From a virus, in the UHGV virus genome UHGV-0144137: 32,828 bases of DNA. One strand, written 5' to 3'. Under the pieces are notes generated by a model. The model worked only from the letters and a program-made list of their open reading frames with translations. It was not told the DNA's origin and did not search any database. Below, in pieces: positions 13,243 to 15,243 of this stretch. The translations under genes were made by a program, and so were the position numbers. Numbering within the stretch: the stretch's first letter is position 1; each line of letters begins with the position of its first letter.

Positions 13243-14661
13243 ATGCCGATTCAGCAACTTCCGCTTATGAAAGGTGTCGGCAAAGACTTCCGAAACGCCG
13301 ACTATATCGACTATCTGCCAGTGAATATGTTGGCTACACCAAAAGAAATCCTTAACAGCAGCGGATATCTTCGCTCATTCCCGGGCATTGCCAAACGTTC
13401 TGATGTGAACGGCGTATCGCGCGGCGTCGAGTACAACATGGCGCAGAATGCTGTATATCGCGTGTGTGGCGGCAAGCTGTATAAGGGCGAAAGCGAGGTC
13501 GGTGATGTTGCCGGAAGTGGTCGCGTATCAATGGCACACGGTAGGACATCACAGGCAGTAGGCGTTAATGGTCAACTGGTCGAGTATCGCTATGATGGCA
13601 CGGTTAAAACCGTCTCAAACTGGCCTACAGACAGCGGATTCACGCAGTATGATTTAGGTTCAGTCCGCGACATTACGCGCTTACGTGGGCGTTATGCGTG
13701 GTCAAAAGACGGCACTGATTCATGGTTTATCACTGACCTTGAAGACGAATCGCACCCTGACCGATACAGCGCACAATATCGTGCAGAGTCTCAGCCTGAC
13801 GGCATCATCGGCATCGGAACATGGCGAGACTTCATCGTCTGCTTTGGTTCATCGACGATTGAATATTTCTCCCTGACTGGCGCAACCACCGTTGGTGCCG
13901 CTTTGTATGTCGCACAGCCATCGCTGATGGTGCAGAAAGGTATTGCCGGGACTTACTGCAAAACGCCATTCGCTGATTCTTATGCGTTCATCAGCAATCC
14001 GGCAACGGGTGCGCCGTCTGTATACATCATCGGCTCCGGTCAGGTATCACCAATCGCCAGCGCGAGCATTGAGAAAATTCTTCGCTCCTACACTGCTGAT
14101 GAACTGGCTGATGGCGTGATGGAATCGTTGCGCTTTGATGCGCATGAGTTGCTGATTATCCATCTTCCGCGCCATGTCCTCGTATACGATGCATCTTCAA
14201 GCGCTAATGCTCCGCAATGGTGTGTACTGAAAACAGGCCTGTATGACGATGTGTACCGCGCTATCGACTTCATTTACGAAGGCAATCAGATAACGTGCGG
14301 CGATAAGCTGGAGTCCGTGACCGGGAAATTGCAGTTCGATATCAGCAGCCAGTACGACAAGCAACAGGAACATATTTTATATTCTCCTTTAATAAAGGCA
14401 GATAACGCTTTAATAAATGACCTTGAATTAGAAACATCGGGCGGCGTGTGTGATAGAATAGATAAAATATTTATATCAGCCACTACAGATGGAATTAGTT
14501 ACGGTCGTGAGCAAATGGTCGTATTACAAAAACCATTTGTATATGACAATCGCGTTTTATGGCGAAAAGTTGGTCGAGTTAGACGCCTCATTGGATTTAA
14601 ATTCAGAGTTATTGCAAAAGGTCCTGTTACATTATCAGGCCTTTCTATTCGTGTAACATAA
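13243..14661 (+). CDS. Packaged-DNA stabilisation / tail hub protein (P22 gp10-like)
   Basis: 472 aa; N-terminus MPIQQLPLMKGVGKDFRNADYIDYLPVNMLATPKEILNSSGYLRSFPGI closely resembles P22 gp10; the last ~90 codons are noticeably AT-rich. Confidence 0.9.
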   Translation: MPIQQLPLMKGVGKDFRNADYIDYLPVNMLATPKEILNSSGYLRSFPGIAKRSDVNGVSRGVEYNMAQNAVYRVCGGKLYKGESEVGDVAGSGRVSMAHGRTSQAVGVNGQLVEYRYDGTVKTVSNWPTDSGFTQYDLGSVRDITRLRGRYAWSKDGTDSWFITDLEDESHPDRYSAQYRAESQPDGIIGIGTWRDFIVCFGSSTIEYFSLTGATTVGAALYVAQPSLMVQKGIAGTYCKTPFADSYAFISNPATGAPSVYIIGSGQVSPIASASIEKILRSYTADELADGVMESLRFDAHELLIIHLPRHVLVYDASSSANAPQWCVLKTGLYDDVYRAIDFIYEGNQITCGDKLESVTGKLQFDISSQYDKQQEHILYSPLIKADNALINDLELETSGGVCDRIDKIFISATTDGISYGREQMVVLQKPFVYDNRVLWRKVGRVRRLIGFKFRVIAKGPVTLSGLSIRVT

Positions 14662-14682
14662 ATCGAAACTAAAGGAGTAGAT

Positions 14683-15243
14683 ATGTTGAGTGAAAACGCA
14701 AAAGATATTCCTGGATATGAAGGTTTATATGCCGTAACAGAGGATGGGCGAGTATATTCTCACTCACGTGTTGTTAAGGCTGCGCATGGCAGCACGCAAC
14801 TCAGAAAGGGGCGGTGGCTAAAACAACACGAGAATAATAAAGGCTATCTATATTTGCCACTTAGTGTTGATGGAGTTAAAGTAAAATGGCTTGTGCATAG
14901 GCTTGTCGCTCTTGCTTTCGTCCCCAATCCAGAAGGCAAGCCGTTCATAAATCACATAGATAACAACCGAAAAAATAATAATGCTTCTAATTTAGAGTGG
15001 TGTACTCAAAAGGAGAATATGAAGCATTGCTCATCTCAAGGCAGGGTGAAGTTTCCGGCTTTAAAAGGAGAAAATAATCCAATTTCAAAGCTCTCATATG
15101 AGCAAGTAATAGAAATAAAGAAATCAAAGGGAGTTAATCAAAGAGAGCTTGCTAAAAAATACTGTGTCAGTCAGACGGTGATTCACAATATCCAGTCTGG
15201 TAAATCGTGGAGGCATGTTAATGGCGGATTCGAATCTCAATAA
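14683..15243 (+). CDS. HNH homing endonuclease (NUMOD4 + HNH_3 motifs), free-standing insertion
   Basis: 186 aa; NUMOD4-like [18 protein letters not shown] and HNH motif [24 protein letters not shown]-rich relative to flanking structural genes; inserted between gp10 and the tail needle gene. Confidence 0.85.

Follow-up and report, generated by a model that had tools for sequence, protein, structure and literature searches.

A free-standing NUMOD4/HNH endonuclease gene and the foreign end of gene 10 linked to it: a probable homing cassette in P22-like phages

The virus genome UHGV-0144137, a stretch of 32,828 nucleotides (nt) called the window in what follows, is a mosaic P22-like genome (Lederbergvirus) whose nearest relatives are HK620, vB_EcoP-611R6, and Sf6. 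Between its gene 10, which encodes the tail hub or head closure protein gp10, and its tail needle gene (gene 26) lies a free-standing gene for a NUMOD4/HNH endonuclease, and the 3' end of gene 10 next to it is AT-rich. An earlier note had pointed out both features and had read them as the product of homing. This article describes the locus, its distribution among related phages and prophages, and the explanations that can be proposed for it. The features concerned are the following (GC3 is the GC content at third codon positions; aa, amino acids).

13243-14661, + strand: gene 10 (tail hub / head closure), 472 aa; Pfam Phage_stabilise, E 7e-282
13243-14372, + strand: backbone part of gene 10, codons 1-377; GC-normal, about 95% identity to Sf6, Gally, and HK620
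14373-14661, + strand: foreign AT-rich tail of gene 10, codons 378-472 and stop; GC 0.36, GC3 0.21; 57% nt and 62% aa identity to Sf6
14662-14682, + strand: 21-nt spacer ATCGAAACTAAAGGAGTAGAT with the ribosome-binding site of the HNH gene; AAGGAG at 14672-14677, ATG 5 nt further on
14683-15243, + strand: free-standing NUMOD4 / HNH_3 endonuclease gene with a putative helix-turn-helix (HTH), 186 aa
Within the window endonuclease: NUMOD4, residues 7-60; HNH motif, residues 70-113; predicted helical C-terminal DNA-binding part, residues 139-171
15209-15213, + strand: GGAGG ribosome-binding site of the needle gene, within the HNH coding sequence
15221-16069, + strand: tail needle gene (gp26 homologue, Sf6 knob type); Phage_tail_NK, E 3.5e-117

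The HNH gene is an open reading frame (ORF) with translation signals of its own: the TAA of gene 10 ends at 14661 and is followed by AAGGAG and by the ATG at 14683. It belongs to the late operon and has a strong ribosome-binding site; nothing above chance was found for a promoter or a terminator of its own. By homology, the needle gene starts at ATG 15221 (MADSNLN...) and not at the mechanically listed ATG 15215. Hence, in the window, the HNH ORF overlaps the needle gene by 23 nt. In the other window-type loci examined, the HNH protein has 181 aa and ends 15 nt earlier. The difference is due to needle codon 2, which reads GCG in the window instead of GCT, a change that is silent in the needle protein and that removes the HNH stop by turning TGA into GGA. 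GC content drops from about 0.52 to 0.37-0.42 over approximately 14330-15250 and rises again, to about 0.50, with the needle gene. On the 5' side of gene 10, gp4 ends at 13234 and gene 10 starts at 13243 with no HNH gene at the junction, and no second HNH paralogue was found anywhere in the window.

The tail of gene 10 was compared codon by codon with gene 8 of Sf6. Up to 14322, identity is 92-100% at the nucleotide level and 95-100% at the amino acid level. From 14383 to the stop codon, it is 48-70% and 55-70%, respectively, and GC3 goes from about 0.55 to 0.08-0.30. Alignment of the junction with HNH-less relatives, as the earlier note had proposed, places the onset of the tract at 14373/14374 (gene 10 nt 1131/1132). 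The switch to AT-rich codons described in that note is real, although the tract measures 288 nt and not about 270. The boundary is sharp: the last bases common to HNH-bearing and HNH-less genomes are CAGGAACA (QQEH codons), followed by TATTTTAT in the former and by CCTGCTGT in the latter. On the right, the cassette ends at the needle ATG, and similarity to Sf6 picks up again exactly at the needle start. From tract start to needle, the window has about 846 nt vs. about 287 nt in Sf6.

The note had also described the tail as recoded with its protein remaining gp10-like. It is still a gp10 C-terminus, but the change is not silent. Compared with Sf6, the tail of 95 codons has 42 synonymous differences, 37 codons for another amino acid, and 16 unchanged codons. 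Thus, the AT-rich tract is a foreign gp10 C-terminus with 38% of its residues changed. A synonymous recoding of the native tail is ruled out by these 37 replacements and by the divergence from the gp10 tails of HNH-less phages (at most 68% aa identity). Indeed, in a phage collection of 50,697 records, 128 of which match gene 10, the tail protein has no more than about 68% aa identity to any gp10 tail, Escherichia phage HZ41 excepted. A protein search with the tail alone yielded only fragments, all of them HNH-linked or of GC-normal types, and a scan of species-representative genomes with HNH peptides gave only three distant, uninformative matches. Two candidate donors were dropped. One locus (L091) proved to be of the window type, with a frameshift in its assembly. 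A Providencia rettgeri prophage has the cassette with little GC discontinuity, but it is not the direct donor, since its tail is less AT-rich (GC3 0.46) than that of the window (GC3 0.21).

The distribution of the tail and of the HNH gene was then considered in phages and prophages. In the phage collection, only HZ41 among the 128 records matching gene 10 carries the tail (98%) and the HNH gene (99%). The flanks of the junction are present in about 898 of 5,426 complete E. coli genomes, and 56 of these have the AT-rich tail. When the search starts from the tail, an HNH or NUMOD4 gene is found 21-24 nt after it in all 56 genomes. In IMG/VR, the same type of scan gave an HNH gene 24 nt past gene 10 in 28 of 28 contigs, one of which has an extra insertion of about 785 bp. 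Conversely, the 30 loci examined that have a junction HNH gene all have the AT-rich tail. The tails of the 27 HNH-less junction loci all have a GC content of 0.49 and are 54-59% identical to the AT-rich class; the AT-rich end is thus not shared by relatives without the endonuclease. In the sampled genomes, linkage of the AT-rich tail to the HNH gene is complete.

The empty site is well defined. In Sf6, Gally, HK620, and others, the end of gene 10 and the start of gene 26 overlap in the sequence TAATG. This arrangement holds for 24 mappable HNH-less junctions, with a 3-nt gap in one further case, in agreement with the statement of the note that gene 26 directly follows gene 10 in P22-like phages. 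Two more HNH-less junctions escaped the motif search, one with TAATG and one (L045) with an unrelated insertion described below. In three of the 56 tail-bearing E. coli genomes, an insertion sequence (IS) element, IS3 or IS1, interrupts the HNH gene. Such insertions of the IS3 family or of IS1, with an intact AT-rich tail, are seen in L095 (2851-4079), L022/L113, and NZ_CP022164 (H115/H196). In these E. coli prophages, the endonuclease gene is decaying without loss of the tail.

Mobility of the block formed by tail, spacer, and HNH gene (the cassette, 847 nt) is best appreciated by comparison with the gene 10 body (1080 nt). In loci that depart from the window at 53-95 of the 1080 positions of the gene 10 body, and that have unrelated gp4 and needle alleles, the cassette differs from that of the window at 1-15 positions. 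Between loci, divergence is 0.1-1.8% for the cassette and 5-9% for the body. For instance, 1/847 cassette positions and 61/1080 body positions differ between the window and L023 (P = 6e-15), and 8/847 and 95/1080 between the window and L014 (P = 1e-16). Among HNH-bearing loci, nucleotide diversity is 0.026 in the tail and 0.066 in the adjoining body, and it reaches 0.074 in HNH-less tails; overall, the cassette is 2.5-3 times less diverse than its flanks. The GC break at the tract is present in every enterobacterial backbone. Hence, the cassette is younger than its surroundings and has recently spread horizontally over diverged backbones. It is at the same time uncommon at the junction, and the pattern is not that of a widespread gene lacking signs of movement.

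The left end of the AT-rich tract is variable. Loci of one set have its first bases at gene 10 nt ~1100 (...TTCGATATATCTTCACAATACGAAAAACAACAAGAGCAT), those of another, to which the window belongs, at nt 1131. At least three backbone variants (DK- and GL-encoding) are found joined to the short form, and both forms occur with the window-type HNH allele. Conversion tracts resolving at different points are expected to give such patterns. The co-conversion tract proposed in the earlier note is thus supported by the linkage, by the variable left end, and by the low diversity of the cassette, homing itself being the probable process behind them.

Movement of the block does not by itself imply that the endonuclease moves it. 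Ordinary homologous recombination at conserved flanks could carry tail and HNH gene together as a passive mosaic module, perhaps favored for its gp10 tail allele, with no part played by the endonuclease. P22-like loci have unrelated gp4 and needle alleles beside similar gene 10 bodies, which points to frequent recombination around gene 10 without any nuclease. The 57% identity between tail classes prevents splitting of the block and would be enough on its own to explain the linkage. Moreover, a cassette-specific tract inside the needle gene was looked for and not found, and the needle side is therefore without a conversion tract. However, nearly all copies have an intact HNH ORF on which purifying selection acts. 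Between the window HNH gene and a 92% identical allele in L024, 38 codon changes are synonymous and 15 non-synonymous; among HNH-linked tails, the corresponding numbers are 25 and 8. Both the tail and the HNH product are therefore maintained. In addition, three different HNH alleles keep the same position and the same tail type, paralogues repeat the pattern at the other end of gene 10, an unrelated HNH-AP2 gene occupies the same junction, and the flanks of the cassette are much older than the cassette itself. All this is usual for homing endonuclease genes (HEGs) and would not be expected of a passive block, and we therefore hold passive transfer to be an unlikely explanation.

What the window protein could do is indicated by its relationship to a known homing enzyme. 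Pfam searches identify NUMOD4 (E 2.6e-11; 44 bits for a cutoff of 23.4) and HNH_3 (E 1.8e-10, above cutoff). The HTH_3 match is weak (E 0.005; 17.3 bits, under the cutoff of 23). The label given to the protein in RefSeq is the generic "NUMOD4 domain-containing protein". With phmmer, the homing endonuclease I-HmuI (PDB 1U3E) is matched over residues 7-152 (E 2.7e-12). N90, H91, N103, N112, and H115 are invariant across 50 homologues; H91 aligns with H75 of I-HmuI and N112 with N96, which we take to be the catalytic His and Asn of that enzyme. An AlphaFold (AF2) model calculated from the 50 homologues (mean pLDDT confidence score 88) has strands over residues 6-70 and three helices at 139-171 (pLDDT 85-94). 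A Foldseek search of the PDB with this model gave a single significant match, 1u3e_M (E 1.4e-8, probability 1.00, TM 0.52-0.55, 191 alignment columns), the next one being I-PpoI at E 0.03. By sequence and predicted fold, the window protein is thus I-HmuI-like, and it would be catalytically active.

The likeness to I-HmuI and I-HmuII of Bacillus phages SPO1 and SP82 extends to the order of domains, with an N-terminal beta-rich NUMOD4, the HNH motif, a helical linker, and, in the window protein putatively, a C-terminal helix-turn-helix, and to the alignment of the catalytic His and Asn positions. One residue differs next to them, the catalytic His being preceded by Asn in the window protein and by Asp in I-HmuI. 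I-HmuI nicks one strand. It is encoded inside a group I intron of the DNA polymerase gene, whereas the window gene stands free between two genes. No Rfam intron-family match at E <= 1 was obtained in 13900-15700, nor at the 5' site of L029 described below, and both genes flanking the window HNH gene are complete ORFs; an intron or an intein is ruled out.

The position of the gene among virion genes could suggest another role, that of a packaging or morphogenesis accessory. The HNH protein would then be a terminase helper, as in some cos phages, or a structural or assembly factor. Its location is the sole support for such a role. Most close relatives, including the well-studied Sf6, HK620, and P22, do without an HNH gene, and the gene is not adjacent to the terminase. 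P22-like phages package by the headful. Finally, the combination of NUMOD4, HNH_3, and a putative HTH and the fold match are those of the homing enzyme I-HmuI. We regard this role as scarcely credible.

The window gene is one member of a wider family. At least three HNH alleles occur at the gene 10/26 junction. The window type corresponds to WP_021514124. A second type, WP_000947776 (L005/L007, 2884-3417), has 177 aa and is 51% identical to the window type, with a tail that is 98% identical; its gene has in common with that of the window no more than ~84 nt at the start and ~11 nt at the end. The third, WP_042048397, goes with a tail that is 86% identical. The C-terminal W-R-H-V-N-G is common to three otherwise different alleles because its codons contain the GGAGG site of the needle gene. 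At the N-terminus, the first 28-47 residues of the window protein are common to two otherwise different alleles, the 47 first residues being shared with a paralogue in phage UPF_BP1. From these sequences, the nuclease and DNA-binding core appears to have been swapped inside a constant frame.

The UPF_BP1 paralogue, 55% identical to the window protein, is located at the 5' end of gene 10. This site is occupied in UPF_BP1 and in about 27 IMG/VR contigs (L029, 3860-4640; also L003, which is UPF_BP1, L014, and L028-L054). First comes what is left of the normal codons 1-32, truncated and ending in stops; then follow a spacer, the HNH gene, and AT-rich codons 1-32. These last are diverged and fused to the gene body, and their start overlaps the 3' end of the HNH gene. 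The spacer, ATCGAAAC..AAGGAGTAGATATG, is of the same type as that of the window. This layout mirrors the window cassette and suggests a cut near codon 32 of gene 10. Both the 5' and the 3' sites of gene 10 are filled in three loci, L014, L031, and L047. In NC_047875.1 (UPF_BP1), gene 10 is annotated as 436 aa from 2165, and a 472-aa frame runs over 2057-3475. The start of gene 10 has probably been mis-annotated because of the HNH insertion, position 2057 falling inside the end of the HNH gene; annotation pipelines shorten gene 10 in the 5'-site variant.

A third genomic site of the HNH family is the interval between the Q antiterminator and holin genes of lambdoid contigs, where a 50% identical NUMOD4/HNH paralogue is found (L061, 4001-4519; L060-L066). 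In addition, the unrelated insertion in L045 (5945-6450), mentioned above, is an ORF with an HNH motif and an AP2-like C-terminus at the gene 10/26 junction. It begins MISHEELKRHLSYDPETG and has a GC content of 0.39. The gene 10 tail of L045 is GC-normal, and about 15 nt of the end of gene 10 are repeated at the 3' end of the inserted ORF. The gene 10/26 junction therefore seems to be a hot spot for unrelated HEGs.

More distant P22-like prophages also carry an HNH gene at the gene 10/26 junction and give information on what the tail follows; they are listed here with aa identities to the window.

L098, Providencia rettgeri CP109846: HNH 68%, tail 72%, body 49-58%; GC of tail 0.42, of body 0.44
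L100, Logan (SRA) metagenome contig: HNH 75%, tail 86%, body 77%; GC of tail 0.38, of body 0.53
L102, NCBI assembly GCA_977068995.1: HNH 61%, tail 80%, body 79%; GC of tail 0.37, of body 0.53

The GC discontinuity between tail and body is small in L098 and clear in L100 and L102. From these values, the tail tracks the HNH gene rather than the backbone. The gene 10 of L098 (CP109846.1, 3180-4973) encodes 597 aa, with an insertion of about 125 aa in its first third as compared with the 472-aa enterobacterial form.

Taken together, we consider it likely that 14373-15220 is a mobile cassette spread by intronless homing of a free-standing I-HmuI-type endonuclease together with a linked conversion tract. 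The activity of the enzyme, the place where it cuts, protection of its own genome by the tail, and homing are the parts of this reading that we infer. The process would take place during lytic growth in a cell also holding an HNH-less P22-like genome, either a co-infecting phage or a resident prophage. The HNH enzyme, translated from the late operon, would nick or cut the HNH-less genome within the GC-normal 3' part of gene 10 or beside it, and repair of the cut genome would use the HNH-bearing genome as template. Strand exchange would resolve on the left of the tail, in the QQEH region or slightly further left, and on the right at the conserved needle start. Since the two tail classes are only ~57% identical, resolution would be possible only outside the tail, and because exchange could not resolve within it, tail and endonuclease gene would always be co-inherited. 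The diverged tail probably removes the site of the enzyme from its own genome. The best candidate for the target is gene 10 nt 1264-1307, the most conserved part, which has 14 mismatches in HNH-linked tails. The hybrid hub works, since HZ41 is an isolated phage carrying the cassette.

Several observations weigh against homing. The tract is one-sided, whereas gene 26 markers too would normally be converted after a double-strand break at the insertion point. HNH-less tails are not especially conserved, as judged from the diversity given above, and a conserved target is not obvious. The donor lineage of the tail was not found, no sampled lineage being an exact compositional home. The HNH gene is dispensable, since several copies are disrupted by IS elements. 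Finally, mosaicism is high in P22-like genomes, and a block with too little homology to be split could be moved by ordinary recombination.

Since an essential virion gene is presumed to be the target, another function of the endonuclease can be considered. It could mainly serve as a weapon in competition, damaging the tail-hub gene of co-resident or superinfecting P22-like phages that do not have the resistant tail, with spread of the cassette as a by-product. The late operon and the strong ribosome-binding site predict expression during lytic growth, and about 900 of the 5,426 E. coli genomes have a P22-like junction, so that encounters would be frequent. There is also a reported precedent for a phage intron endonuclease acting in interference competition (PMC11620839). 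However, the same sequence patterns are those of homing, with which this function is compatible, and IS-disrupted copies persist. As the main role of the enzyme, competition is in our opinion quite improbable.

Spread by homing of a free-standing endonuclease can be compared with known phage systems. In the literature searched, no description of an endonuclease gene located between genes 10 and 26 of P22-like phages was found, but the concept is known from the seg/mob genes of T4 (PMC2988022, PMC2790892, and PMC2330249) and from the HEG islands of ICP1. The details of the Seg/MobE comparison belong to the general background on T4. Seg proteins are of the GIY-YIG family, whereas the window enzyme is of the HNH type. 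T-even phages are virulent, and the hosts of the cassette are temperate P22-like phages and prophages. The linked tract is a deeply diverged, compositionally foreign segment here (57% nt identity) vs. scattered polymorphisms in the T4-like cases. As to the likenesses, T4-like SegB, SegF, SegG, and MobE, which are known for intronless homing and localized marker exclusion, are encoded by intergenic genes beside an essential gene. These free-standing endonuclease genes are sporadic among relatives, flanking DNA is co-inherited with them, and the donor's own site is diverged.

In ICP1 and other phages, HEGs also lie at the boundaries of genetic exchange beside essential structural genes, different HEG classes occupy favored loci, and HEGs are modular (Barth, Dunham and Seed, 2023, PMC10448857). 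L014, L031, and L047 resemble the island pattern, in which a gene is bracketed by two HEGs, whereas the window has only one. The moved unit is also smaller, less than 1 kb vs. more than 10 kb in ICP1 HEG islands. The HNH genes of ICP1 carry AP2 domains, and only the unrelated L045 insert looks like that type.

In the tail structure of Sf6, the hub has extensions at its N- and C-termini that together form an apical domain, by which it is docked to the head-to-tail adaptor (PMC9728967). It is precisely these termini that are replaced at the two HNH sites, codons 1-32 at the 5' site and codons 378-472 at the 3' site. It may tentatively be imagined, though we find it rather doubtful, that gene 10 is the cargo of a two-ended homing system. 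The endonucleases would then drive a modular, possibly co-adapted exchange of apical domains across the phages of Enterobacterales and Morganellaceae, and would also be weapons between co-resident prophages.

The general understanding of homing endonucleases is unchanged by this cassette. E. coli prophages offer dozens of independent sites, occupied or empty, which together with the isolated phage HZ41 form a natural data set. To our knowledge, homing has been little studied in temperate phages. The cassette explains a sharp mosaic boundary inside gene 10, and it lets one see how a probable homing endonuclease gene replaces a portion of an essential virion gene in such phages.

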